Positions 3,518-38,220 of a DNA stretch of 64,000 nt are shown one piece after another. Position 1 is the first letter of the stretch. Every line of letters starts with the position of its first letter. The position numbers and the translations under genes are program-made. Below the pieces are notes generated by a model, which was not told the origin of the DNA, did not search any database, and saw only the letters and a list, made by a program, of their open reading frames with translations. Source of the DNA: Candidatus Caldarchaeum sp. (GTDB lineage: Archaea; Thermoproteota; Nitrososphaeria_A; Caldarchaeales; Caldarchaeaceae). The DNA lies in NCBI GenBank assembly GCA_038890155.1, contig JAWAFZ010000002.1, forward strand, positions 10,774 through 74,773. The letters are read 5' to 3'.

Positions 3518-5770
3518 TCACTGACTCAGCTCAACAACACGTGTCGGCTCGCCGGTGTTTCGGCTGAATTTGTAGACATGCGCGTCTGTGCCCGTGAAGA
3601 GCTCTTCGTCGTGTGTTATTACTAGTACTTGGTTTATTGTTTGGGCTAGTGATGTGAAGAGATGGGATAGTCTTGACCTGTTCTCGGGGTCCAGATGCAC
3701 TGTCGGCTCGTCGAGGATGAAGATGCCAAGCCGTTCCGCCCCCAAGACATCGCCTATTGCGAGACGCAAAGCCAGCGCCACACCAACACGTTCACCCCCA
3801 CTCAACGAATCAACAGAAACCTCACGCCCGTGCGAAAAACATTCAACCACGACGTCCCCATTCTCCTCGACAACAGCTATGTCGTCCACCAGTAAGTTGA
3901 GAATCTCGACGTAGCGAGAAACCGCTTGAGAGACCTTCTTGACCGCCCAAGACCTGAGAGAACGCGGGACGTAGCCGTCTCTGCTGTAGACTTCCCTCCT
4001 GACGAGCTCAAGAAGCTCGTAGAATTTCACAGCCCGAATCAGCTTAGAGTGTATCTCCTGAAGAGTTTTCAGCTGATCCCAAACATTCTCAAGGTTTCTT
4101 TGCTCCTCGGCTATCCGGCCTCTGAGCATACCCGCCTCCCTCCTGACCTCGTTAAGCTCTTTCTCCAGTTCCTCAACAGTCCCGCTGTCTACTGCCGCCG
4201 CCTTGTCATAGTTAGATCTAATGAATTCAAACCATTCAGCCTCACGCCCCCCAAGCCTCGACAACGGCTCTAGCCCCCGAACATCTATTTCATGCAGCTT
4301 CTTCGTCTTCATCCCCTCAACCAGCCCGCTCAAATCTCTGCATGTTTGCTTAAGGTCCTCCAGCATCCGTTTGTCTGAGATACGTCTATTCTCCAGCCAT
4401 AGTTTGGCTCTCCCTAGTCTTTCCCTAAACTTATCCACAGTAGTGCCGTCAAACGTCTTGAGTTCTTCAAGCCTCTCGTCTACCCCTGTTGATTCTCTCC
4501 TCTTGGCCTCAAGCTCCTCTTTCAACCTAGCTATCAACTCCCGCAGCTCCTGCACCATGCAGCCTACGCCGTTGGCGCGGCCGACCTCATGGGCCTCAAC
4601 AACCAACTCCGGCAGGCTCCGAGACTCAGCCTTCACTACATCAGTCAGCCTACCAGCCTCTTCAACCAGTCCACGGCCGGCGGCTTCCAAGGCTTTTTCA
4701 GCCGCATCGATAATCCTAGCGCCAACCTCAACGGCTCTGTTTCGAACCTGCTCCAAGCCCGTGGCCTGCACGCTGAGCGCTGCATTCTTGTTGAGTGCCT
4801 CAAGCCTTTTTTCCTCCTCCTTCAGCCGCTTTCGAAGAGCCTCAACATCCCTGTCAATAACCGTCTTCCTCTCTCGGACTTCGTCCAGTTCCTTCTCGAC
4901 CTTCCTGAACTCGGCCTCCCTCTCCACAACAGAAATATTTTCCTCCGCCTCGACGATGTCCCTCGCCATGTCCTTGATCCATGTCTCGGCCGAGTTTAAC
5001 AGGTTCCTGAGGGCTGTTTCGGTCCTCACACGCGTTTCGAACAAGCTCCTGAGACGCTGAGCCTTTTCCTCGAGCTTCTTCTCACGCTCCGTGATGGCCT
5101 GCAACAGGCTCGTGTCTTTGTCCAACTCTTCGGCAATCCTCTTCTGTTCCTCCTCCAGCTGTTTTAGCCGTTCCTCTAGATTTCCTGCGTCGGAGACGGA
5201 GAACTCGAGCTCCTTCCTAACCCTTTCGTCAAACATTTCGATGATTTTCTTCATGTTGTTGTACGCCGCTTCCGACCCTATTCCTATAAGGTCGTCGAAC
5301 AAGTTTTTCAGCTCCCTAGGCTTCATCGAGATTATTCTGTCAAGCTCTCCCTGTTGGACGACGACGCATGACTTCAGCTTTTCATAATCCAGTCCAAACA
5401 AGTTGGCGATGTACTCTGCCACGCCCTGCTTTCTCCTCTCGCCGACGATTACGGGCTTGCCGTCTTTTGTGACCTCGGCGTGCTCGAGCCCTCCATCCTT
5501 CCCGAAGGCCCTAGAGACTGTATACCGGCTTCCGTTGTAGAAGAGCTCAACCTGAACCTTGCCCCCCCATCCATACAGATTATTCACGACGTTCCGCACC
5601 TCTCCACGGCTTTGTCTCCCGTAGAGACAGTACAGCAGGGCGTCTACGACAGAGCTCTTGCCCGCACCATTACGTCCTATGAAGACGTTGAGCCCTCTCC
5701 TCAGCTCAAGCGACGTCTCCCTGTGCGACATGAAGTTCCTAATCTCAATTCGCTCTATCAACAACTTCAC
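3518..5770 (-). CDS. rad50: DNA double-strand break repair ATPase Rad50
   Basis: Walker A GRNGAGKSS, Q-loop VVVQQGELD, long E/K/L/R coiled coil, signature SLSGGERV, Walker B IFILDEPTVHLD, H-loop VITHDEE. The maximal ORF runs to 5872. I place the start at GTG 5770 (VKLLIERIEIRNF), the usual Rad50 N-terminus, overlapping the mre11 stop. Confidence 0.9.
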   Translation of the reverse strand: MKLLIERIEIRNFMSHRETSLELRRGLNVFIGRNGAGKSSVVDALLYCLYGRQSRGEVRNVVNNLYGWGGKVQVELFYNGSRYTVSRAFGKDGGLEHAEVTKDGKPVIVGERRKQGVAEYIANLFGLDYEKLKSCVVVQQGELDRIISMKPRELKNLFDDLIGIGSEAAYNNMKKIIEMFDERVRKELEFSVSDAGNLEERLKQLEEEQKRIAEELDKDTSLLQAITEREKKLEEKAQRLRSLFETRVRTETALRNLLNSAETWIKDMARDIVEAEENISVVEREAEFRKVEKELDEVRERKTVIDRDVEALRKRLKEEEKRLEALNKNAALSVQATGLEQVRNRAVEVGARIIDAAEKALEAAGRGLVEEAGRLTDVVKAESRSLPELVVEAHEVGRANGVGCMVQELRELIARLKEELEAKRRESTGVDERLEELKTFDGTTVDKFRERLGRAKLWLENRRISDKRMLEDLKQTCRDLSGLVEGMKTKKLHEIDVRGLEPLSRLGGREAEWFEFIRSNYDKAAAVDSGTVEELEKELNEVRREAGMLRGRIAEEQRNLENVWDQLKTLQEIHSKLIRAVKFYELLELVRREVYSRDGYVPRSLRSWAVKKVSQAVSRYVEILNLLVDDIAVVEENGDVVVECFSHGREVSVDSLSGGERVGVALALRLAIGDVLGAERLGIFILDEPTVHLDPENRSRLSHLFTSLAQTINQVLVITHDEELFTGTDAHVYKFSRNTGEPTRVVELSQ

Positions 5771-6878
5771 ACCTCTCACTATAATGTTTCCATACAAGCT
5801 CGAAAGCATGCTTGACAGCTCCCTCAACAAGCAATCGCCTAAACTCGCCTGTGAAGAAGACGGCGTCAACATCGTCCTTTATGACCTCGGAAGCCAGCTT
5901 CACCAACTCTCTTTCTATGTTCGGCGGCTCATCGTAAACCAAGCCGTTGCCTCCCCTGACAACCTGCATGATTCTTCCGCCGTGCAGCAAGTACTTCTCC
6001 GAAAGCTCCTCCTCCAGCTTCCGCATGTTCTTGCGCTCGGTTGTGCGGACCATGAGTGAGAGGAGTGGTTTTTTCACGTGGTTTTCGGACAATAGCTGTG
6101 AAACCATCATCCCCACGTCTTCTTCATCCACCTGCCTGACGATCTTCGGCCTTACATTGCTCAGCCTCACCCATTCAAGCTCCGGCTCCCTTCCAGAAAG
6201 GTCGACAAGGTAGAACCCGCACTCGTCTGGGTCGTCTATTTTAGTCCAGTGCAGGGCGCCAGGGTATGCTAGAAGGCCTCTGCCTTTTACTCGTCTGGAG
6301 GGGTTGTGGATGTGCCCCATCGCATAATAGTCGAATTCGTCGGGAATCACCGCTAAGGACAAATCTCCAGCCGGGCCGTGAAGCTCGTGGAGCCCTTGAT
6401 GGAGGATTAGAATTTTCCTCCTCGAGCCGGTGTTTCGTGCTTCGGCCGCTATCTTCTCGAGCTTATCCTCGAGCTTTCTCGTGAATGCTTTGTGATGCCT
6501 CATCAAGCCGAACACGCTTATTTGTTCATCGCCGTGTCTCCTTCCGTCGCCAACGTACTCTGCGAGTCCGAGAACGGAGTCGAGCAGGAGCGGGTTGGGC
6601 GTCCCCGGGTAGCTGGCTATGTCGTGTTCGCCCAAAGTGAAGTAGGTTTTTACACCGCTTTGGGAAAGTCGGCCGAGCTCCGCCAGTAAAACCTTCAGCG
6701 GCGTCCCGTACACGAGTGGTTTGTTCAGTATGTCGCCCGAGTGGACAACAACACGGACGTGGTCCTCCAGTATAACATCCACCGCTTCTCTGAAGGACTC
6801 GTAATGGTCTCTCTCCCTCTCCTCATCCTCACCCATGTACCTGCCAAGATGTGTGTCAGAAAGGTGGGCGATGATCAT
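5745..6878 (-). CDS. mre11: DNA double-strand break repair nuclease Mre11
   Basis: Calcineurin-type phosphoesterase motifs: IAHLSDTHLG, VVHSGDILN, LGEHD, ILILHQG, AMGHIHNP. Confidence 0.9.
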   Translation of the reverse strand: MIIAHLSDTHLGRYMGEDEERERDHYESFREAVDVILEDHVRVVVHSGDILNKPLVYGTPLKVLLAELGRLSQSGVKTYFTLGEHDIASYPGTPNPLLLDSVLGLAEYVGDGRRHGDEQISVFGLMRHHKAFTRKLEDKLEKIAAEARNTGSRRKILILHQGLHELHGPAGDLSLAVIPDEFDYYAMGHIHNPSRRVKGRGLLAYPGALHWTKIDDPDECGFYLVDLSGREPELEWVRLSNVRPKIVRQVDEEDVGMMVSQLLSENHVKKPLLSLMVRTTERKNMRKLEEELSEKYLLHGGRIMQVVRGGNGLVYDEPPNIERELVKLASEVIKDDVDAVFFTGEFRRLLVEGAVKHAFELVWKHYSERCEVVDRAN

Positions 6879-8344
6879 GGCCTTATCAAGTCTTCAGGAG
6901 ACGAAAGCGTTGCTTCTCTGTCCTCCAGCCATTGTTTGACGGCGTCGAGGTCTCTGCCGATGAGTTTCTCCTCGACTCTGTCCACCAACACGAGCGTGGT
7001 TGTTTTTACCCACTGTCCTGCCAAGATCATTTCTCCTGTGTTGAGGCAAGGTAGGTTAACGCCTAGCTCTTCTGACACGAAATCTGTGGATTTTGTGATG
7101 AAGGCTTGGTCTTCTGGATGGGTTATTCCAGATATTGCGAAGCTGCCCATCTGGCTGACGACGTCTGGGTCCAGCCTGTTGGGCCTCTGCGACACGATGA
7201 TGAGCCCTACGCCGAACTTCCTCCCCTCTCTAGCAACTCTCGAAACAACATCTGCGCATTCGCTGCCGCCCTTGTCGGCTGGGATGAAGACATGAGCCTC
7301 CTCCACAGCGACCAGCACGGGCGAGGTGAATTTAGCGTCGTAGCCTAAAACAGCGTTCTTGCGGTCGTTAAGTATCTCCATCAGAAAGTGGCGTAGAAGT
7401 ATCTGGGCCTGTTTCTCCGTGAACTCGGAGAGGTCCACCACGTTTATTCTGTTCCTCTTAAGCGACTCGAGCACGGTTCTGCTTTTTTCATCGAATATTC
7501 GGCCCTTTATGGTGAGGGCTCGTTCTATTATTTCAAGCAGTCTGGATGCAGTTTGGGCTCTGTTTGAATCGCTGTTGTCGTCGTTCGCTATGTCGCTGAG
7601 CCTGTTTCTCAAATCCTCCCAGAAGTTTTCCCTTGTCCGAGAGTCTCTGAACACGTTCGAGAGGATGCTTCTCTGTTTCTCAGCGCTTGAGCGGATGTCG
7701 AGAAGGTCGGCTAATTCCTCTGAGTCTAGGTTTCTGGGGTTGATGCGTGGAGCGACGTAGTGTGTTTTCCTGCTTTTCATCTGGCTGTACTCGGCGTGGT
7801 AGTCGAAGATGACCATGGTGCCGTTTTTCTCGGCGGTCCTCCTAGCTATGAGGGCGAGAAGGTTTGACTTGCCCTTACCTGTTGTCGCCAAGATGGCTAG
7901 GTGTCTAGACGCTACTTTGTTCAAGTTCACGGCGACTCCGACGCTCGGCCTCCTCAGCAAACGCCCCACCTCAACCCATTCCTCGCCCTCCATCCTGTAC
8001 ACAGCCCTCAGCAACTTGTCGTCAACCTCGTAGACGTACGAGCCCGGCTCGGGTGGAATGGATGGAGTGGCTGGCATCCAGCCGTCTCGGAACATGCCGA
8101 GAGCCCTTGCTAGGCAGGTGTAGCTTCTGTCCCGTGGGTTGTGTTTTGAGGCTCGCTGGGCTTCTTCGGCCGTGATGAAGTCTCTGACGGTTGACAAGAG
8201 CTTGCTCTCGGTCTCCGAGCGCTCAACCATGTAAAGGACCTGGCCTTCAGCTGCGTCAACCATCACAAACTCCCCCACCTTGACAGGTCTGTTGGACAGG
8301 AACACGACGCGGTCCGGCATCGACCGTCCTACAAGTATCCCCAC
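6875..8344 (-). CDS. herA: HerA bipolar DNA helicase (FtsK/HerA superfamily ATPase)
   Basis: N-terminal barrel region (VGEFVMVDAAEGQVLYMVE), Walker A TTGKGKSN, Walker B LVAVEEAHVFIP. 4-nt overlap with mre11. Confidence 0.9.
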   Translation of the reverse strand: MGILVGRSMPDRVVFLSNRPVKVGEFVMVDAAEGQVLYMVERSETESKLLSTVRDFITAEEAQRASKHNPRDRSYTCLARALGMFRDGWMPATPSIPPEPGSYVYEVDDKLLRAVYRMEGEEWVEVGRLLRRPSVGVAVNLNKVASRHLAILATTGKGKSNLLALIARRTAEKNGTMVIFDYHAEYSQMKSRKTHYVAPRINPRNLDSEELADLLDIRSSAEKQRSILSNVFRDSRTRENFWEDLRNRLSDIANDDNSDSNRAQTASRLLEIIERALTIKGRIFDEKSRTVLESLKRNRINVVDLSEFTEKQAQILLRHFLMEILNDRKNAVLGYDAKFTSPVLVAVEEAHVFIPADKGGSECADVVSRVAREGRKFGVGLIIVSQRPNRLDPDVVSQMGSFAISGITHPEDQAFITKSTDFVSEELGVNLPCLNTGEMILAGQWVKTTTLVLVDRVEEKLIGRDLDAVKQWLEDREATLSSPEDLIRP

Positions 8345-8345
8345 G

Positions 8346-9218
8346 CTACTCAGGGCTCAACACCTCCCTAGCTTGCTCAAAACTAGCAAACCCTGCAGCC
8401 TCGGCAAGCATGACCATCAACTCGTACGAGAAGCCGGCTCCTTGATGAGCTGTCAACAGCTCCGCCGGATATCCCTTGACCGACGTGGTGGACAGAGCAT
8501 CCATCAACCTTTCTATGTCGGAGGCCGAAACGGGCTGGGTGGACTCGAAATGAAGCGCCGGCGTGTTTTTAGCGAGTCGTGCGTAGAAGACCCAGACGTA
8601 GCCGCCCAAGGTCTCCAACTCTCTGGCAGTCGGTAGTGTGTATCCCGTTTCAGAGGTTGATTTGTTGATGTAGTAAACGTCCCCAAGCAGACCTTTAAAC
8701 ATGCTGTTGTCCTGCGAATACTTTGAGACGAAGAAAATTCTTCTGTCCAGAAGTGGTCTGAGGTTTGCCAGATACTCGTTGAACATCTTTAACCCCTTCA
8801 GACGGGATGCTTTTACAGTTCTTGCGAGCAGAGAACCGTCGACAAGTGTGTAATCAAGGTCTGCGGCTGATTCCGCTGCGAGCCTATGTTCGTGAGACTC
8901 GGCTACGGCTTCAACGTATAGTTGGGGGAGAAGTCCCTCAGTTCTGGCGACCAACTCTACTTCAGCAACTGATGGCACTACATCATTACCGCCTCTGTCA
9001 ACGGCAACCGCCTTCAAACCGTAAAGGAAAAACCCATGATACAGTAGCGTATTCCAACCGCTGTCAACAGCAGCCACAGACGACTCTACGGCTCTAGGTT
9101 CGTAAACATTCCACACCGCTTCAGCGTCCTTTAGATAACGCTTGGCATCGTCTCCCTCCAGTATTTCACGGCTTCGTACACCCAGGCCGACCGCCTTACT
9201 GAACAGACTTTCCAGCAA
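8346..9218 (-). CDS. nurA: NurA 5'-3' nuclease
   Basis: NurA-type motifs VAAVDSGWN, TLVDGSLLAR, FFVSKYSQ and VKGYPAELLTAHQ. It lies immediately upstream of herA (1 nt spacer). Confidence 0.8.
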   Translation of the reverse strand: MLESLFSKAVGLGVRSREILEGDDAKRYLKDAEAVWNVYEPRAVESSVAAVDSGWNTLLYHGFFLYGLKAVAVDRGGNDVVPSVAEVELVARTEGLLPQLYVEAVAESHEHRLAAESAADLDYTLVDGSLLARTVKASRLKGLKMFNEYLANLRPLLDRRIFFVSKYSQDNSMFKGLLGDVYYINKSTSETGYTLPTARELETLGGYVWVFYARLAKNTPALHFESTQPVSASDIERLMDALSTTSVKGYPAELLTAHQGAGFSYELMVMLAEAAGFASFEQAREVLSPE

Positions 9219-30093: not shown

Positions 30094-30121
30094 CCTTGAC
30101 GAACCATCTGAGCGGCGGAGA

Positions 30122-30196
30122 GCCCTGGTAGCTCAGCCCGGTTAGAGCGGCCGCCTCGTAAGCGGCAGGTCGAGGGTTCAAAGCCCTCCCAGGGCT
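30122..30196 (+). tRNA. tRNA-Thr (anticodon CGT)
   Basis: Manual cloverleaf. Acceptor stem GCCCTGG/CCAGGGC; D arm GCTC..GAGC; anticodon stem GCCGC/GCGGC with loop CTCGTAA; T arm GAGGG-TTCAAAG-CCCTC. 75 nt, no intron, no encoded CCA. Confidence 0.9.
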
Positions 30197-30272
30197 ACTT
30201 TCCTCCAGCCGGTTTGTTTTCAGCCATGATGTAGAACGTGTTTTTCCTCGTGTCTGGACAGCAGGTTGATGG

Positions 30273-31418: not shown

Positions 31419-31442
31419 CAGATTGGCCTCGTTTAGGGACGT

Positions 31443-31517
31443 GGGCCGGTAGCTCAGCATGGTTAGAGCGTTCGGCTGATAACCGAAAGGTCGGGAGTTC
31501 GAATCTCCCCCGGCCCA
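31443..31517 (+). tRNA. tRNA-Ile (anticodon GAT)
   Basis: Manual cloverleaf. Acceptor stem GGGCCGG/CCGGCCC; anticodon stem TTCGG/CCGAA with loop CTGATAA; T arm GGGAG-TTCGAAT-CTCCC. 75 nt, no intron. Confidence 0.9.
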
Positions 31518-31639
31518 GCCGTCCTACCTGACTGGAGGGAATACTGTGGTTAGGGTTGGTGGATTACCTGAAGACCGTCATCCCTGATACGCTTATATCT
31601 TAGTTTGAGCTCATGTGATGTAAACAGAACCCGAAGGGA

Positions 31640-32131
31640 TTGTTGATGTCGGCTTATGAGGAGAGGCTTGAAAAAGCAACGAGCTTCGAGGAGGTTTACA
31701 GGCTTGTGAAAGCACTCGTCATGGAGAGGTACGGCCTCCGCAGGGCCGGGATGGGCTTGGTTCTGGCCGACCTTCCGTCTCAGCTTCTGGCTTACCATGA
31801 AGTAGGGTCAAACTCCATCGTCGTCAACAGAACGCTTCTGAACGCCGTCTCATCAATCAGCAAGTCGAGGAAAATAGTCAACAGCTATGTCTTCGTCATT
31901 CTTCTCCACGAGTATCTTCACACGCTGGGGTTTGACGAGCGGCAGACGAGGGAGCTTGTGAAGGAGGCTGTCTCATCCGTCTTTCCGTTCGAGCATCCTG
32001 CAACAAGGCTGGCCACTTCATCGGTCTACGAAGTCTTCCCAGAGCTCCGCAACATACCGCTGGCTCCAGGCCCTTCCAAGCCAGTATTAGTCAAGGACTT
32101 CGACACAGAAGGCCTGAACTACATAGGTTGA
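31640..32131 (+). CDS. Hypothetical protein with an HExxH motif (putative small zinc metallopeptidase)
   Basis: 163 aa. The only recognisable feature is ILLHEYLHTLGFDE (HExxH). Confidence 0.4.
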   Translation: MLMSAYEERLEKATSFEEVYRLVKALVMERYGLRRAGMGLVLADLPSQLLAYHEVGSNSIVVNRTLLNAVSSISKSRKIVNSYVFVILLHEYLHTLGFDERQTRELVKEAVSSVFPFEHPATRLATSSVYEVFPELRNIPLAPGPSKPVLVKDFDTEGLNYIG

Positions 32132-33384: not shown

Positions 33385-33639
33385 CTATTCCTTCTTGAGT
33401 TCTTCGTTCAGCTCTTTCTCTATTTCCTCCAAGGGTTTCGGTGGAGGAGTTGTTGCAAGGGTGTATCCTATCCATCCGATTATCCCTAAGACTCCTGCGA
33501 CCGCTATGAACCCCGTGAGCTTGAGCAACAATAGGTCGAGGCCTGCTAACGGTGGCAGGAAAAGGATCCAGCCATAAACAACGACTCCAAGAACGCTGCC
33601 CAGCAACAGAACGGCTCCAAGCGTCTGGTCTCTGGCCAT
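33385..33639 (-). CDS. Small membrane protein (2 TM, charged C-terminal tail)
   Basis: 84 aa from ATG 33639. Two hydrophobic helices are followed by PPPKPLEEIEKELNEELKKE. It diverges from the first wHTH paralog across an ATATAAA box (33663-33669). Confidence 0.45.
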   Translation of the reverse strand: MARDQTLGAVLLLGSVLGVVVYGWILFLPPLAGLDLLLLKLTGFIAVAGVLGIIGWIGYTLATTPPPKPLEEIEKELNEELKKE

Positions 33640-33701
33640 GGTCAAAAAGCCGACCAAACCGCATATAAACTTAACTTTAGGAGATAACAAGCCTGATCGG
33701 C

Positions 33702-34166
33702 TTGACTGAGGGTTCTAAGGTCGTCGTAAGGATTAGGCATGGAGAAAGGGAGGTGGAGTTTGAGGGCAGCCGTGAGGAGGTTTGGGCAGCGGTCAACAAG
33801 TACTTCTCCGAGACTCTCGGCCCTGTCGAGATTGTGTCAAGGCTTCGAGGTCAAGTGGACGTCTCCGAGATTGCGGCTAAGCTGTCGGGTAAAGTTCTTT
33901 TAAGCGATGGAAAAGTGGACGTGCTAGTCCAAGGAGACGCCAAGAAGAGAATAATTCTGTGTTTGGCGGCTGTTTTCGTCGGCAGGAGGATGGGGATGGT
34001 TGGAACCGATTTCCTATCCCCAAAGGAGGTCGCAGGCATCCTTCGCATAGACGAGCGGGTTGCGAGGGCAAGGCTTAGCGAGCTGTGGAAAAGCGGCTTG
34101 GTGGACAAGGACGAAGACGGACGATACAGATTTAAGCCTTTCACATCACTCAAACTAATCGAGTGA
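33702..34166 (+). CDS. Uncharacterised two-module protein, paralog 1 (N-terminal beta-hairpin/helix module plus C-terminal winged helix)
   Basis: TTG start. The N-module VVVRIRHGEREVEFEGSREEVWAAVNKYF aligns with paralogs 2 and 3. The C-module LSPKEVAGILRIDERVARARLSELWKSGLVDKDEDGRYRF looks like a wHTH. Confidence 0.55.
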   Translation: MTEGSKVVVRIRHGEREVEFEGSREEVWAAVNKYFSETLGPVEIVSRLRGQVDVSEIAAKLSGKVLLSDGKVDVLVQGDAKKRIILCLAAVFVGRRMGMVGTDFLSPKEVAGILRIDERVARARLSELWKSGLVDKDEDGRYRFKPFTSLKLIE

Positions 34167-34173
34167 AGGGGAG

Positions 34174-34656
34174 ATGACGAACCTCCGGGTTTCCATAGCT
34201 TACGGAGAGTTAAAGGCAGAGTTTGAAGGAGCGCCGGAAGACGTTTACGTGCAGGTCGTGAGGTTTCTGGAGCGTTCGATACCAGGATTCGTTCTGGCGT
34301 CCAAGCTCAACGCTTTCCCCGGCGCCGAGGAGCTGCTCACAAAGCTCAGCGACGTGCTGGCTTACACGACAGCCGACGGCGTGTTCGTCAAGAAATCCCT
34401 ATCCGACATGCCTACCTCAAGCGCCCTCCTGCTGTATGCGGCTTCTAGGTATATCAACAACCTCCTCGGGTTTTCCGATAGACAGGAGTTTTCCTCGTCG
34501 GAGCTTGCTGGGGCTTTGGCGAAGCCTGAGAAAACTGTGTCGGGCCGGTTGACCGAGCTCGTTCAGCGTGGTTTTCTGAAGAGGGTTGGTAGGGGTGGAT
34601 ACGTCATAACACCTCATGGTCTGGCCTATCTTGTCGAGTCGTCCGCCAGCATCTGA
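34174..34656 (+). CDS. Uncharacterised two-module protein, paralog 2
   Basis: N-module LRVSIAYGELKAEFEGAPEDVYVQVVRFL. C-module FSSSELAGALAKPEKTVSGRLTELVQRGFLKRVGRGGYVITP (wHTH-like). Starts 7 nt after paralog 1. Confidence 0.55.
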   Translation: MTNLRVSIAYGELKAEFEGAPEDVYVQVVRFLERSIPGFVLASKLNAFPGAEELLTKLSDVLAYTTADGVFVKKSLSDMPTSSALLLYAASRYINNLLGFSDRQEFSSSELAGALAKPEKTVSGRLTELVQRGFLKRVGRGGYVITPHGLAYLVESSASI

Positions 34657-35036
34657 GAGCTTGTCTCAGAGTTTTTAGAGGCTTCGACGTAGACATACCT
34701 GCGTGGCTCGCCCACCCTTTCGAGCACTCCAGACCTCACTAAGTCTAGCAGCACGTGGGCTACGGCAGTCGTGTCGTAGAGAAAACCTCGACGCTCCAGC
34801 TCAGCAGCCACCTCCGACAGGGTTTTGCCGTTCTTCATCCATCCAACATGCACGAGTTCTTCGACGGCTTTACGGCATGTGATTGGTTTCTTGAATGATG
34901 CGGACCTTGTGGGCTGTGGCTCGGCCGTTTTTAGGGCTGTGAGGACGTTCTTGACGGCTTCCTCTATCTTGTCGATGGGGGCTTCGACTTCTACGGTGGC
35001 TGTTCCCGTGGTTATTTTTATCTTGATCGTGCTCAA
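34626..35036 (-). CDS. Uncharacterised two-module protein, paralog 3
   Basis: N-module IKIKITTGTATVEVEAPIDKIEEAVKNVL. C-module KTLSEVAAELERRGFLYDTTAVAHVLLDLVRSGVLERVGEPRRYVYV (wHTH-like). Its 3' end overlaps paralog 2 by 31 nt. Confidence 0.55.
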   Translation of the reverse strand: MSTIKIKITTGTATVEVEAPIDKIEEAVKNVLTALKTAEPQPTRSASFKKPITCRKAVEELVHVGWMKNGKTLSEVAAELERRGFLYDTTAVAHVLLDLVRSGVLERVGEPRRYVYVEASKNSETSSQMLADDSTR

Positions 35037-35068
35037 TTGTTTCCACTGTTTTGTTCATCTTGCGCAAC

Positions 35069-35078
35069 ATTTATATTT
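35069..35078. promoter_or_regulatory. Single A/T-rich box shared by divergent genes (paralog 3 and nurA2)
   Basis: ATTTATATTT lies about 35 nt from both ATG 35036 (minus strand) and ATG 35108 (plus strand). It is the only TATA-like element in the 71-nt spacer. Confidence 0.35.
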
Positions 35079-35107
35079 GTCCCAGCAACAGAAAACATAA
35101 CGAGTTG

Positions 35108-36130
35108 ATGACCAAGATGACCAACCAATACCTTCACCAACTAACACCCACACCAGACCTCATAGACCTACTAAAAACTTTTTCCTCTGTAGCTGAATAT
35201 ACCGTTAAACATCTGCATGGCTCGGAGACCCTGCCCCTCCAAGCCGACGACGACTACCCCGACCTGCCCATCCAGCTTCTCACGGCAGACTCGTTCGAAA
35301 CCATCCCAATCACTAACTCAAGCAACTCAGTCCCCGTAGTGGCCTGCGACATGTCCACAGTCAAGGTTGCTGAAACCACTCGTGGAAGCGTGTGGGCTGT
35401 TAGGGGAAGCATAGTCATCAGGCATGGCCCCGAGCTGACGGCGTCCGTCGTCGGCCCTTTCATCTACAACATATCAGCCTACACAGCGGCAAAAATAGTC
35501 GACGCCCTACTCGCCTCGCTGGGTGCTCGCCGGAGGATTAGGTTCCTAGACGTCTCAACCGCCCCAAAAATCGTCAGCAACCTGTTCGAGAAACTTATCC
35601 AGCTCTACGCCGGAACTTTGGCCAAGGACGGGCTGCTCCTGGTTGACGGTGCTTTGACCGCAGGACCTATGGACAGCCCCCCGGCCGTTGTCGAGAAAAT
35701 CGTGGAAACCACGCTCGGCTCAAGCTACGGCGTCATAGCCTTCTCCAAGTCCACTACTCTCATGCTCTACGGGCAAAGAATAACCTCCTACGCAGCCGGA
35801 ACCCCGCCTCCCTACGTCATTAAGCTGCCCACGCTGAGGGACATGGTCGTGAGGAACGGGTCGGTCTACGTCGCACGTCTGTCTTCAGCACGAACTCCTT
35901 TCCGAGTCGACGTCGTCTCAAGAACGAACGACGAGCAAGTTTTCAGCCTACTTCTTTCAAGCGATAACATCGTAAACGGATACCCCGAATCCCTGATACT
36001 CGCGCATCATCTAGCTAAACTCAACAGGCTCGACGTCCTAGGCATAAGCACACGTCTCGAAGTCCTGATGAGGATGAAGATTCCAAAGAACGATGTCAGG
36101 TCGATGCTGTTCACTCCGATCGACGGGTGA
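35108..36130 (+). CDS. NurA-like nuclease, second copy
   Basis: Motif-for-motif match to the NurA at 8346-9218. VVACDMSTVK matches VAAVDSGWN; LLLVDGALTAG matches TLVDGSLLAR; VIAFSKSTTL matches FFVSKYSQ; VNGYPESLILAHHLAKL matches VKGYPAELLTAHQ. Start set at ATG 35108 (ORF track 35051). Confidence 0.7.
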   Translation: MTKMTNQYLHQLTPTPDLIDLLKTFSSVAEYTVKHLHGSETLPLQADDDYPDLPIQLLTADSFETIPITNSSNSVPVVACDMSTVKVAETTRGSVWAVRGSIVIRHGPELTASVVGPFIYNISAYTAAKIVDALLASLGARRRIRFLDVSTAPKIVSNLFEKLIQLYAGTLAKDGLLLVDGALTAGPMDSPPAVVEKIVETTLGSSYGVIAFSKSTTLMLYGQRITSYAAGTPPPYVIKLPTLRDMVVRNGSVYVARLSSARTPFRVDVVSRTNDEQVFSLLLSSDNIVNGYPESLILAHHLAKLNRLDVLGISTRLEVLMRMKIPKNDVRSMLFTPIDG

Positions 36131-36137
36131 ACGACCC

Positions 36138-37637
36138 ATGAGAATTCTAACGAAAAGAGGCGACCTTCTCGAGTTAATATGCGTTCCAGCCGAGTTAGTC
36201 TTCGAGATAGGCGACTATCTAAGGATATCTCAGGAAGGACGAACGATGCTCGTCCAAGTGATAGACGTCTCCTATCCGGAGCTGCCTGGAACGGCCGAGG
36301 ACCTCCTCAGGGACATGGTTCTTCAAGAGGTTGAGGGCAGGCGTGTGCTTGATGTTTACGACACGGATTCGGTGTCGATGTTGCTGAAGGAGACGAGGCT
36401 CGTACTGGCTAAGATAAGGGTTGTTGTTGACGAGGGACGTCTTCGCCACAACTCCTCGTGGATTCCTAGCCGTTATTCATCTGTTTTTGAGAAGGCCACA
36501 AACGACTTTCTTCAAAAAATTGTCCACGGCGGATGTGCTGGGCCTTTCTTCACGGTCGGCGATGTAGGGAACGAGCCCTTTTCGCTGTCTCTGCGTGGGC
36601 TAGACGGCTGCTTAACCATCGTCACGGGAAAGAAGGAGAGCGGTAAATCTCACTTGGCTAAAGTTTTGGTGGAATCGCTGGCTTCTCACGGAGCCACCGT
36701 TCTGGTCTTCGACGTCAACGGTGAATACCTCCAACTGGGCAAGACAGTTGAAGGCAAGAAAAGCCACATAGCTGATTCAATCCACGTCCTAGAACCGGGT
36801 AGGAACTTCAGAGCTAGCTTGAACAGCATGGGGCTCAAAACCTTTCTAGACATACTGGAGCATGTATACGCCACGCCTTCAACGAGCCTGAGGGAGCTTG
36901 CGAGAGTATGGAAGAACGCCGAGCGACGTGGCGAAGTTAGCTTGGAAAACCTGCTGACCGCCGTGGAGAAAGAGAACATGAACGAAGCTGTTAGGGAGGC
37001 TCTCTTATCCAGGCTTCAGAGCGTCAAGTCTTCAGGCTTCTTCGACGAGCACCATAACACGGACATCGAAGAGGCTTTATCCAACAAGCCAAACGGAAAC
37101 GTCGCCGTCGTCGACCTGTCGAGGATGCTGCCCAGCACTCGAAGACTAGTTGTCGAGTACCTGCTGAGCCGTCTCTCCGGACTCCTAAGCATGAACAAGC
37201 TCGACCCGGTTTTCCTTCTAGCTGAAGAGGCACATCTCTACCTCCGTGAAACCTACTGGGAAGACATAGTGACCAGAATGAGGCATCTGGGTGTCTTCCC
37301 GGTGATAGTGACGAACCAGCCTGACACGATTCCTGAACTGGTTTACAGACAGGCTGATAACATTTTTCTCTTTAACTTCACGAACGACTCGGACCTTGAG
37401 AAGATTGCGAAGGTTTCGAAGGTGGACGCCGAGACTGTGAGAACCTTGGTTAAGAAGATGCCTCCGAGATACTGCTTGGTCATCGGAAGAGTTGTAAGCG
37501 ACATACCTTTGATGGTTAGGGTGAGGCCGAGCAGCTTGATGACCATGGGGAAGACTAAACTGTTTTTTAGAGACCGTGAGCTGAGGAGGAGAAGGGATGA
37601 GAAACAACAGCCTGAGGAGCGTCTACAAATTCCATAG
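36138..37637 (+). CDS. HerA-like FtsK/HerA-superfamily ATPase, second copy
   Basis: N-terminal barrel-like region (IGDYLRISQEGRTMLVQVIDV), Walker A GKKESGKSHLAKV, Walker B VFLLAEEAHLYL. ATG 36138 lies 7 nt after the nurA2 stop. Very basic C-terminal tail. Confidence 0.8.
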   Translation: MRILTKRGDLLELICVPAELVFEIGDYLRISQEGRTMLVQVIDVSYPELPGTAEDLLRDMVLQEVEGRRVLDVYDTDSVSMLLKETRLVLAKIRVVVDEGRLRHNSSWIPSRYSSVFEKATNDFLQKIVHGGCAGPFFTVGDVGNEPFSLSLRGLDGCLTIVTGKKESGKSHLAKVLVESLASHGATVLVFDVNGEYLQLGKTVEGKKSHIADSIHVLEPGRNFRASLNSMGLKTFLDILEHVYATPSTSLRELARVWKNAERRGEVSLENLLTAVEKENMNEAVREALLSRLQSVKSSGFFDEHHNTDIEEALSNKPNGNVAVVDLSRMLPSTRRLVVEYLLSRLSGLLSMNKLDPVFLLAEEAHLYLRETYWEDIVTRMRHLGVFPVIVTNQPDTIPELVYRQADNIFLFNFTNDSDLEKIAKVSKVDAETVRTLVKKMPPRYCLVIGRVVSDIPLMVRVRPSSLMTMGKTKLFFRDRELRRRRDEKQQPEERLQIP

Positions 37638-38220
37638 GAGGAAGATTCTGAGAACTCTGAGAAGTTTCAGGGAGAACAGGAAAGACCCTTCGCGAGTCTG
37701 GGAGGAGCTGGTCTTCTGTCTCTGCACTCCTCAGACCAGAGCCCGCAACGCCTTAAACGCTGTAGAGAAGATGAGAAGCCTCGGTCTGTTGAATAACCCT
37801 GACAACGTCAGAACAGCTCTGGTGTTAAAGGAGTGCGGCGTACGCTTCCACAAAACGAAAGCAGACAACATACTGCAGGCTTTCAAGCAGTTCGGCGACA
37901 TCCTCGACAAGCTGAAGTGCGAGAAAGATGTTTTCAAGCTCAGGGATTACTTGGTTAACAACGTCAAGGGCCTGGGCATGAAGGAAGCAAGTCATTTTCT
38001 CAGGAACATAGGGTTTGAAGACTGCTCCATAATAGACCGCCACGTGCTCAGCCACCTTGTCTCCGCAGGCGTTGTCCGCAGCACGCCTAGAAGCTTGACG
38101 AGGAAAAGATACCTGATTCTGGAGAGGAAGTTCAAGCTATACGCCGAGAAGTCCGGGTTCAAGCCGAGTGTGCTCGACCTCGTGGTCTGGGCTGCTGCCA
38201 CGGGCGAGGTTATCAAATGA
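37597..38220 (+). CDS. ogg: 8-oxoguanine DNA glycosylase/AP lyase, archaeal Ogg2 family (HhH-GPD)
   Basis: Near-collinear with archaeal Ogg2: ELVFCLCTPQT, and VKGLGMKEASHFLRNIGFEDCSIIDRHV (catalytic Lys and Asp context). Overlaps the herA2 3' end by 41 nt. Confidence 0.85.
   Translation: MRNNSLRSVYKFHRRKILRTLRSFRENRKDPSRVWEELVFCLCTPQTRARNALNAVEKMRSLGLLNNPDNVRTALVLKECGVRFHKTKADNILQAFKQFGDILDKLKCEKDVFKLRDYLVNNVKGLGMKEASHFLRNIGFEDCSIIDRHVLSHLVSAGVVRSTPRSLTRKRYLILERKFKLYAEKSGFKPSVLDLVVWAAATGEVIK

Follow-up and report, generated by a model that had tools for sequence, protein, structure and literature searches.

A second NurA-HerA gene pair in Candidatus Caldarchaeum is conserved together with a superfamily of small, predicted winged-helix proteins

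The 64-kb stretch of DNA from Candidatus Caldarchaeum sp. analyzed here (contig JAWAFZ010000002.1, hereafter the window), from a genus that was formerly placed in the Aigarchaeota, encodes two pairs of a NurA nuclease and a HerA ATPase. The first pair (HerA1-NurA1) belongs to a canonical Mre11-Rad50-HerA1-NurA1 operon on the minus strand at 3.5-9.2 kb, and the second (NurA2-HerA2) lies ~26 kb away on the plus strand, downstream of three small genes, A, B and C, whose products are predicted to end in a winged helix-turn-helix (wHTH) domain. Our main finding is that NurA2, HerA2 and the A/B-like (AB) and C-like small-protein genes have been kept together across archaeal classes, and it is very probable that they form a conserved functional unit. 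Both pairs had been recognized in a preliminary description made from the sequence alone, and the open reading frames (ORFs) and Pfam matches (Table 1) bear out its gene calls, as do the translations for all of the motifs it quoted (VVACD, LVDGAL, FSKST, GYPESLILAHH, GKKESGKS and LLAEEAH).

In order to establish how widely the second pair occurs, one genome per GTDB species was surveyed with a 31-sequence NurA2 alignment as the query, and NurA2 relatives were found in 404 species genomes. The best 80 of these 404 genomes belong to Caldarchaeales genera, other Nitrososphaeria and Bathyarchaeia, and cluster look-ups added relatives from Conexivisphaerales, Culexarchaeia, thermophilic Nitrosocaldaceae and one Anoxybacillus. 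Neighborhood statistics were then calculated for 89 loci from Caldarchaeales, other Nitrososphaeria and Bathyarchaeia. HerA2 directly followed NurA2 in all but one of them (88/89), C-like genes were present in 76 and A/B-like genes in about 70, and when the 1298 neighborhood genes were clustered, the only families that reached at least 70 loci were AB, C, NurA2 and HerA2, with every flanking gene family found in 30 loci or fewer. The adjacency reported for the window is thus also a property of related genomes. Among the 71 loci with at least 3 kb of upstream sequence, 70 carried one to four small-family genes upstream of NurA2; C, the most constant companion of the pair, was the immediate upstream neighbor in 61 of the 71, and in 6 loci an AB-type gene lay directly upstream of NurA2 on the same strand. 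As a reciprocal check, C took the place of NurA2 as the anchor, and each of the 4 loci so examined contained the module.

One alternative is that there is no functional unit and that the small genes sit beside nurA2-herA2 through inherited gene order only. At the genus level this would be hard to tell apart from a true association, because the whole 12-kb region is syntenic in Caldarchaeum relatives, including the unrelated FrhB, Ogg, RsmB and glycosyltransferase genes, and synteny at that level is therefore no proof of linkage. Across classes, however, the small-protein genes persist beside different flanks, which argues for an association beyond general synteny. Ogg-RsmB-prePUA lies downstream in Caldarchaeales; in its place other Nitrososphaeria have a CdvB-like gene with Vps4, or GlmS, and Bathyarchaeia have a Nudix gene. 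On the upstream side there is GatD/GatE, which in the non-Caldarchaeum Nitrososphaeria lies immediately upstream of the small-protein genes. The association also survives rearranged architectures. In the window type, A and B are followed by a divergent C and then NurA2 and HerA2, with A orthologues holding the same position in all Caldarchaeales-type loci; other Nitrososphaeria have the order c22, A, B, divergent C, NurA2, HerA2, where c22 is a further branch of the small-protein family. Bathyarchaeia of a first type have C', A and B, then a gap, and then the divergent C, NurA2 and HerA2, and those of a second type have four AB-type genes directly upstream of NurA2 and HerA2 on the same strand. 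Conservation extends to the promoter that C and NurA2 have in common, as described below. Taking these observations together, we consider inherited gene order alone to be a very improbable explanation that is already largely refuted.

NurA2 is a divergent member of the NurA family that looks active as judged by its sequence. It passes the Pfam NurA model (PF09376) at 26.1 bits against a gathering score of 21, through residues 256-304 only, and 24 of 31 NurA2 relatives match the same model at E<=0.01 (best 4.4e-9). D81, D180, K214, R266, Y292, L296 and H300 do not vary among 94 diverse sequences, and E161 is kept in >=90% of them. In NurA of Sulfolobus solfataricus (Sso), D58, E116 and D133 are catalytic and K202 and Y298 form a conserved active-site pair (PMC3326311), and the conserved residues of NurA2 map to this D58/E116/D133/K202/Y298 set, with the DGSL and GYP motifs aligned by HMMER. 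A full HMMER scan with the NurA2 profile retrieved 370 representative clusters, and in 246 cases the match was at E<=1e-10. A search of the Protein Data Bank (PDB) sequences with the same profile gave nothing specific, the top match being a spurious designed pentatricopeptide repeat (PPR) protein and Sso NurA reaching E 0.02.

HerA2 matches Pfam DUF87/HerA (PF01935) at 74.9 bits against a cut-off of 23.2, and 80 sequences preserve its Walker A (GKKESGKS) and Walker B (FLLAEEAH) along with the ATPase motifs further downstream. Its nearest solved structure is Sso HerA (4d2i, E 1.9e-6). When the HerA2 family profile was aligned with HerA1 by hhalign, residues 20-458 matched residues 19-451 at 96.8% probability, including the N-terminal barrel region, and the same N-terminal domain as in HerA1 is implied.

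Judged by these sequence comparisons, NurA2 and HerA2 constitute an old, distinct clade and are not the recent tandem-type duplicates that would have undermined the preliminary description. Besides the number of NurA2 clusters given above, the assignment is based on three observations: HerA2 and HerA1 are 25% identical over the ATPase core, NurA1 of the same genome scores 10.5 bits against the NurA2 profile (the sole match common to NurA1 and NurA2 being a short C-terminal stretch), and both NurA2 and HerA2 miss the cut-offs of the NCBIfam equivalogs, NurA2 with 20.1 bits against 400 for NF041033 (NurA_Sulf) and HerA2 with 37.8 bits against 800 for NF040937 (HerA_Thermprot), to which HerA1 aligned at 289.8 bits. 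The second pair appears from its sequence to have co-evolved apart from the Mre11-Rad50-linked HerA1-NurA1 of the same genome.

Comparison with the canonical HerA-NurA system (Sso HerA 4d2i, Sso NurA 2ygk) shows what has been kept and what has changed. The two systems have in common the same two families encoded by adjacent, co-oriented genes, the D/E/D set and K/Y pair of NurA, the Walker A and B motifs of HerA and an alignment that spans barrel and ATPase, and NurA2-HerA2 probably works like the canonical pair, as an ATP-driven nuclease-translocase. They differ in the HerA divergence given above, in NurA profiles that barely see each other, and in genomic context: the canonical pair is linked to Mre11/Rad50, whereas NurA2-HerA2 is linked to wHTH genes, and Mre11 and Rad50 families were not among the conserved neighbors of NurA2-HerA2 in any of the 89 loci, even though the canonical operon coexists with it in the genome of the window. 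They also differ at the interface. Phe300 of Sso NurA lies within the HerA-binding patch, and F300E was among the interface mutants made (PMC3326311); the same position is an invariant Glu in NurA2 (GYPE) and Ala in NurA1 of the same genome. Because a HerA-contact position is Glu in NurA2, NurA2 and HerA2 probably do not pair with the canonical partners, and a separate, non-cross-reacting interface can be predicted.

The three small proteins are not equally close to one another. A and B are clear paralogs (BLASTP E 9e-13; hhalign 99%, E 6e-18), as the preliminary description had stated for all three, but its claim did not hold for C in pairwise comparison, where no relation to A or B was detectable either pairwise or with narrow profiles. 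C could be joined to them only with broad family profiles built from the 89 loci, which linked C to AB at 94% (E 1.6e-7, 116 columns), a plus-strand C-like branch to AB at 96% (E 3.5e-9) and c22 to AB at 93% (E 3.6e-7). On the basis of these hhalign links and a common predicted architecture, we designate A, B and C as members of one previously undescribed superfamily. The common plan in the AlphaFold2 models is an N-terminal beta-hairpin and helix followed by a C-terminal wHTH, with an extra alpha/beta middle part in A and B. The model of B (mean predicted local distance difference test score, pLDDT, 85.4) has a beta-hairpin at residues 4-19, helices at 21-57, a hairpin at 62-72, a helix at 81-97 and the wHTH at 108-155, and that of C has a beta-hairpin at 3-20 and a helix at 24-37 (pLDDT ~60), a disordered segment at 38-53 and the wHTH at 54-118 (pLDDT ~90).

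Neither sequence nor model placed these proteins in a characterized regulator family, in agreement with the preliminary description. No Pfam family was found for A, B or C, and their Pfam, NCBIfam and PADLOC matches were sub-threshold and of generic wHTH type; a PDB sequence search with the C profile gave nothing specific. In Foldseek searches C and B matched generic wHTH folds alone (E ~2e-3 to 6e-3; MarR, BlaI, Fur and CRP-type regulators), the matches of B being to generic CRP/MarR wHTH domains with TM-scores of 0.25-0.40, and the N-terminal beta-hairpin-helix module had no Foldseek match in the PDB. C scored 20.1 bits against cut-offs of 22.6 for BlaI/MecI (PF03965) and 22.2 for the MarR type (PF13463), and sub-threshold Penicillinase_R (BlaI/MecI) matches were seen in 35 of 72 C members. 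MarR/BlaI/MecI repressors share the wHTH with the C-terminal domain of A, B and C, and C is likewise divergent from its likely target beside an inverted repeat. The repressors, however, have an N-terminal wHTH and a C-terminal dimerization domain, whereas in the C model the order is reversed, with an oligomerization-like module at the N-terminus, and the A/B/C matches fall under the Pfam gathering scores in a family with one to five paralogs per locus. The superfamily is large: the C branch comprises 2236 clusters at 90% identity, among the 120 of which that were listed there was no Pfam domain and nearly all source names were "hypothetical", and the B family gave 14 clusters at word-index sensitivity, "hypothetical" wherever a source name was present. 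The preliminary description had named three findings that would speak against a functional unit, namely a known regulator family for the small proteins, loss of adjacency in relatives and recent duplication of the pair, and none of them was found.

The 71-nt spacer between C and NurA2 contains the TATA-like box that the preliminary description had noted, TTTATATTT at 35070-35078, about 30 nt from both start codons. As one TATA thus serves the starts of both genes at a similar distance, the arrangement suggests a single bidirectional promoter with short or absent leaders. The spacer also holds a TTGCGCAA palindrome at 35060-35067 and a conserved element, GCAACATTTATAT, at 35064-35076, the exact form of which occurs once in the window. 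When the C/NurA2 intergenic regions were aligned on the TATA box, a degenerate element, [GA]CAA[CT]A[CT]TTA[AT]A[AT], was obtained. Of 86 loci, 64 carry it at the promoter of NurA2, and it has only 6 matches elsewhere in 1.09 Mb on both strands; for CTCAANTTGAG, 20 of the 21 placeable matches were at the C/NurA2 promoter. Just upstream of the TATA, on the C side, there are inverted repeats that were significant in 23 of 59 distinct promoters. Nitrososphaeria other than Caldarchaeum have (T)TGCTCAA-N-TTGAGCA(A), in which the arms are invariant and the center varies (p<=0.01 each), and some Bathyarchaeia promoters have inverted repeats with 6-10 bp arms. The recognition helix and wing of the C wHTH are also invariant across classes (T90, A91, H94, R107, G109, R112, Y114 and Y116), and since this invariance across two classes matches that of the cis-element, C is a candidate operator-binding regulator of the C/NurA2 promoter.

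We propose a mechanism to which, as a whole, we give an even chance of being correct: that the module encodes a vertically inherited housekeeping nuclease-translocase with C as its regulator and A and B as DNA-binding partners. The nuclease, NurA2, would be active and RNase-H-like, the ATPase, HerA2, would combine a HAS-barrel with a RecA-like domain and, by analogy with canonical HerA-NurA, a hexameric HerA2 translocase capped by a NurA2 dimer would thread and digest DNA ends with ATP. A dimeric winged-helix C may bind the conserved element and the inverted repeat, which abuts the B recognition element (BRE)/TATA, and would thereby control its own gene and the nurA2-herA2 operon. A and B, along with the extra paralogs of other lineages, may oligomerize via the beta-hairpin module at their N-termini and serve the motor as partners that target it to DNA or load it, in the place that Mre11-Rad50 occupies in the canonical operon. 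The role would be one of housekeeping genome maintenance, e.g., the processing of particular DNA ends or lesions. More specifically, we tentatively suggest, as a possibility that is on balance unlikely, that A and B (and C) are stoichiometric subunits whose hetero-oligomers, formed via the N-terminal beta-hairpin, recognize a DNA structure or site and load HerA2-NurA2.

The main rival, which we consider possible but doubtful, is that A, B and C are ordinary transcription factors of nurA2-herA2, and possibly of other genes, that never touch the enzymes. Their sole recognizable domain is a wHTH whose nearest folds are regulators of the MarR, BlaI, Fur and CRP types, C is divergent across a conserved promoter with inverted repeats, and in Bathyarchaeia the A/B genes can be 1-5 kb from NurA2-HerA2. 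Set against this, it would be unusual for two archaeal classes to keep three to five paralogous regulators beside one operon of two genes, the four same-strand AB-type genes upstream of nurA2-herA2 in one Bathyarchaeia subgroup resemble genes for subunits in an operon, and palindromes of the C/NurA2 type were searched for upstream of the A-B unit and not found. The N-terminal hairpin, modeled with low confidence on its own, would also fit an assembly interface.

It is important to note that several observations weigh against the housekeeping nuclease-translocase that we propose. For the enzymes, the Pfam NurA match is confined to the C-terminal quarter of NurA2, and the NurA2 profile aligns weakly with NurA1 and Sso NurA. 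For the promoter, the TTGCGCAA palindrome of the window is only 4+4 and not significant relative to shuffled sequences (p 0.22), the repeats are imperfect in many Bathyarchaeia, and the conserved element could be an unusually strong BRE/TATA instead of an operator. For the small proteins, Geocrenenecus-type loci show only C within 7 kb, and A and B may be regulators rather than subunits, because divergent wHTH genes are a classic transcription-factor layout. The protein-protein contacts and DNA binding of the module are predicted from sequence, and the module may have a different role, of which defense is an improbable example.

Defense merits consideration given that Sir2-HerA and DUF4297-HerA (PDB 8j4u/8su9 and 9c1m) are anti-phage systems. 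In such a role NurA2-HerA2 would act against viruses or plasmids as a HerA-plus-effector system, with the wHTH proteins as sensors or regulators. Like those systems, it combines a HerA-family ATPase, hexameric in the known cases, with a nuclease-type effector, and HerA2 shows weak similarity to their ATPase core; its best PADLOC match is mad8 (62 bits, partial), with further weak matches to HerA defense models. A CRISPR (clustered regularly interspaced short palindromic repeat)-associated nurA-csm6-herA arrangement is known from Pyrobaculum (Thermoproteales; PMC3396285), and a defensive action of HerA-family ATPases together with nucleases has been described (PMC11291478). The HerA2 matches, however, are at the superfamily level only. 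The effector is NurA2, for which, as for C, there was no PADLOC match, and HerA2 scored far under the cut-offs of the NCBIfam antiphage models, at 32.5 bits against 800 for NF042943 (HerA_antiphage) and 17.4 bits against 850 for NF042944. The locus is single, syntenic and situated in the core chromosome among housekeeping genes (GatDE, Ogg, RsmB, CdvB/Vps4 and GlmS), and HerA2 similarity drops with taxonomic distance, from E ~1e-270 in Caldarchaeum to 1e-185 in other Nitrososphaeria and 1e-145 in Bathyarchaeia. No relatives of the module were found in the viral contig collection or the plasmid collection, no CRISPR-like repeat arrays in the window, and no csm6/cas gene families among the neighbors in the 89 loci. 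On these grounds the evidence favors housekeeping DNA processing over defense. Among the functions that the preliminary description had offered, a regulated or targeted DNA-processing machine or a specialized repair module therefore still fits, and a defense module is disfavored.

Another rival, at least as improbable as defense in our judgment, is that HerA2 pumps DNA, either when chromosomes are segregated or resolved at cell division or when DNA is transferred or taken up (FtsK, TdtA or Ced-like), with NurA2 as the trimming nuclease and the wHTH proteins as markers of specific chromosomal sites. In 21 loci of non-Caldarchaeum Nitrososphaeria a CdvB-like ESCRT-III/winged-helix protein and Vps4 are encoded just downstream of HerA2, the HerA-like TdtA of Thermus has a NurA-like nuclease as its partner in transjugation (PMC5365140), and HerA2 has a weak match (34.9 bits) to the CedD model. 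That match is weaker than the one of HerA1 (93.8 bits), however, the Cdv adjacency is limited to certain lineages and may be plain synteny, and the module is not accompanied by conserved membrane or pilus components, a small transmembrane (TM) protein being present in Caldarchaeum-type loci only.

Additional NurA-HerA pairs have been described in other archaea. Three nurA-herA pairs co-evolve in Pyrobaculum, one of them the CRISPR-linked nurA-csm6-herA (PMC3396285). In Sulfolobus, Csa3a and aCcr1 bind a second nurA-herA operon (SiRe_0094/0095, Saci_0148), to which no function has been assigned (PMC5587795, PMC9976892). As in the window, these are co-evolving NurA-HerA pairs beside a repair operon, and the Sulfolobus promoter is under dedicated transcription-factor control. 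When compared by their descriptions, they differ from NurA2-HerA2 in that the papers report no wHTH paralog family; in addition, NurA2-HerA2 is not near CRISPR/cas genes, unlike the Pyrobaculum pair, and the extra pairs are from Thermoproteia whereas the NurA2 clade is seen mainly in Nitrososphaeria and Bathyarchaeia. In a literature search, no paper was found that connects NurA/HerA to Bathyarchaeota or to a family of wHTH paralogs.

Table 1. Features of the window discussed in the text (nt positions within the window; aa, amino acids).
Feature	Coordinates	Strand	Basis and remarks
Rad50	3518-5872	-	Pfam
Mre11	5745-6878	-	Pfam
HerA1	6875-8344	-	Pfam DUF87, 140 bits
NurA1	8346-9218	-	Pfam NurA, 58.7 bits
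Small two-TM membrane protein	33385-33690 (33385-33639 from likely true start)	-	Not wHTH
Small protein A, 154 aa	33702-34166	+	First gene of A-B unit; AB branch of wHTH superfamily; ORF listing
Small protein B, 160 aa	34174-34656	+	AB branch; ORF listing
Small protein C, 136 aa	34626-35036	-	Divergent from NurA2; ORF listing
C/NurA2 spacer, 71 nt	35037-35107		Suggested bidirectional promoter region; sequence
NurA2, 340 aa	35108-36130	+	Pfam NurA; active-site residues retained
HerA2, 499 aa	36138-37637	+	Pfam DUF87/HerA; start 7 nt past NurA2 stop
Ogg-type 8-oxoguanine DNA glycosylase	37597-38220	+	Pfam Ogg-HhH, 173 bits

Several features close to the module were also recorded. B and C are convergent and their 3' ends overlap by 31 nt (34626-34656); a terminator-like hairpin with a T-run is present on the plus strand at 34652-34670, at the 3' end of B and within the end of C. 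The leftmost gene of the region, which lies within the stretch that the preliminary description had assigned to the module, encodes a two-TM membrane protein on the minus strand and not a wHTH protein. Most of its orthologues have 84 aa, and its start is therefore suggested to be at 33639. It matches no Pfam family and diverges from gene A across a TATA-like box at about 33664-33671. Its C-terminal tail, GWIGYTLATTPPPKP[LI]EEIEKEL[ND]EELKK, is near-invariant across relatives. The protein accompanies the module in 24 of the 89 loci, all of Caldarchaeum/Pelearchaeum type (plus two weak matches elsewhere), and it was rejected as a Ced-like membrane partner on account of its presence with the module in the closest relatives only. 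Further upstream, 2-5 kb from the module, tRNA-Thr(CGT) (30121-30198) and tRNA-Ile(GAT) (31442-31520) flank a histidinol-phosphate aminotransferase-like gene in a region that is syntenic in relatives. In 17 loci the FrhB-like gene is preceded by a conserved ORF (family c16), which in the window encodes 163 aa (31640-32131, +); its ~160-aa orthologues have no precomputed Pfam match.

Downstream, the Ogg gene runs in the same direction as HerA2, and the two share 41 nt. Ogg follows HerA2 in 28 of the 89 loci, all of Caldarchaeales type, and is a lineage-specific neighbor outside the conserved core. Many Bathyarchaeia have in turn a convergent Nudix (MutT-like) hydrolase gene (family c17; loci L050-L088, e.g., L066:9314-9760, -). 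The Ogg and Nudix families are both able to act on oxidized guanine, which may be a functional hint or a coincidence; we regard it as a weak, lineage-restricted hint. In the non-Caldarchaeum Nitrososphaeria (L023-L041), HerA2 is followed by genes for a CdvB-like coiled coil with a C-terminal winged helix and for Vps4 (MIT plus AAA), as at L039:9671-10411 (+) and L039:10408-11586 (-), and the link to cell division that they bring is likewise a weak hint restricted to a lineage. Lastly, a NurA2-family member was identified in the bacterium Anoxybacillus rupiensis (protein P0127, E 1.9e-28), and one locus (L081) is labeled "Candidatus Acidoferrum" yet looks Bathyarchaeia-like; horizontal transfer or contamination of a metagenome-assembled genome (MAG) could account for these two cases.

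Extra archaeal NurA-HerA pairs have been noted since 2012 without an assigned function, and databases label all of them "DSB repair nuclease NurA" (DSB, double-strand break), an annotation problem in which the NurA2 paralog is conflated with the repair enzyme. One such extra clade is now defined as a separate, ancient module that at least 404 species genomes contain, and its best-matching loci are from two abundant, largely uncultured archaeal classes whose DNA repair is poorly understood. A large, uncharacterized small-protein superfamily is now attached to this clade, and nurA2-herA2 now has a candidate operator and a promoter element that is deeply conserved. If the small proteins are indeed subunits, the module would represent an unrecognized, Mre11-Rad50-independent genome-maintenance pathway ancestral to Nitrososphaeria and Bathyarchaeia. 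The conserved promoter, the small-protein genes and the enzyme pair provide testable handles on a putative genome-maintenance function.

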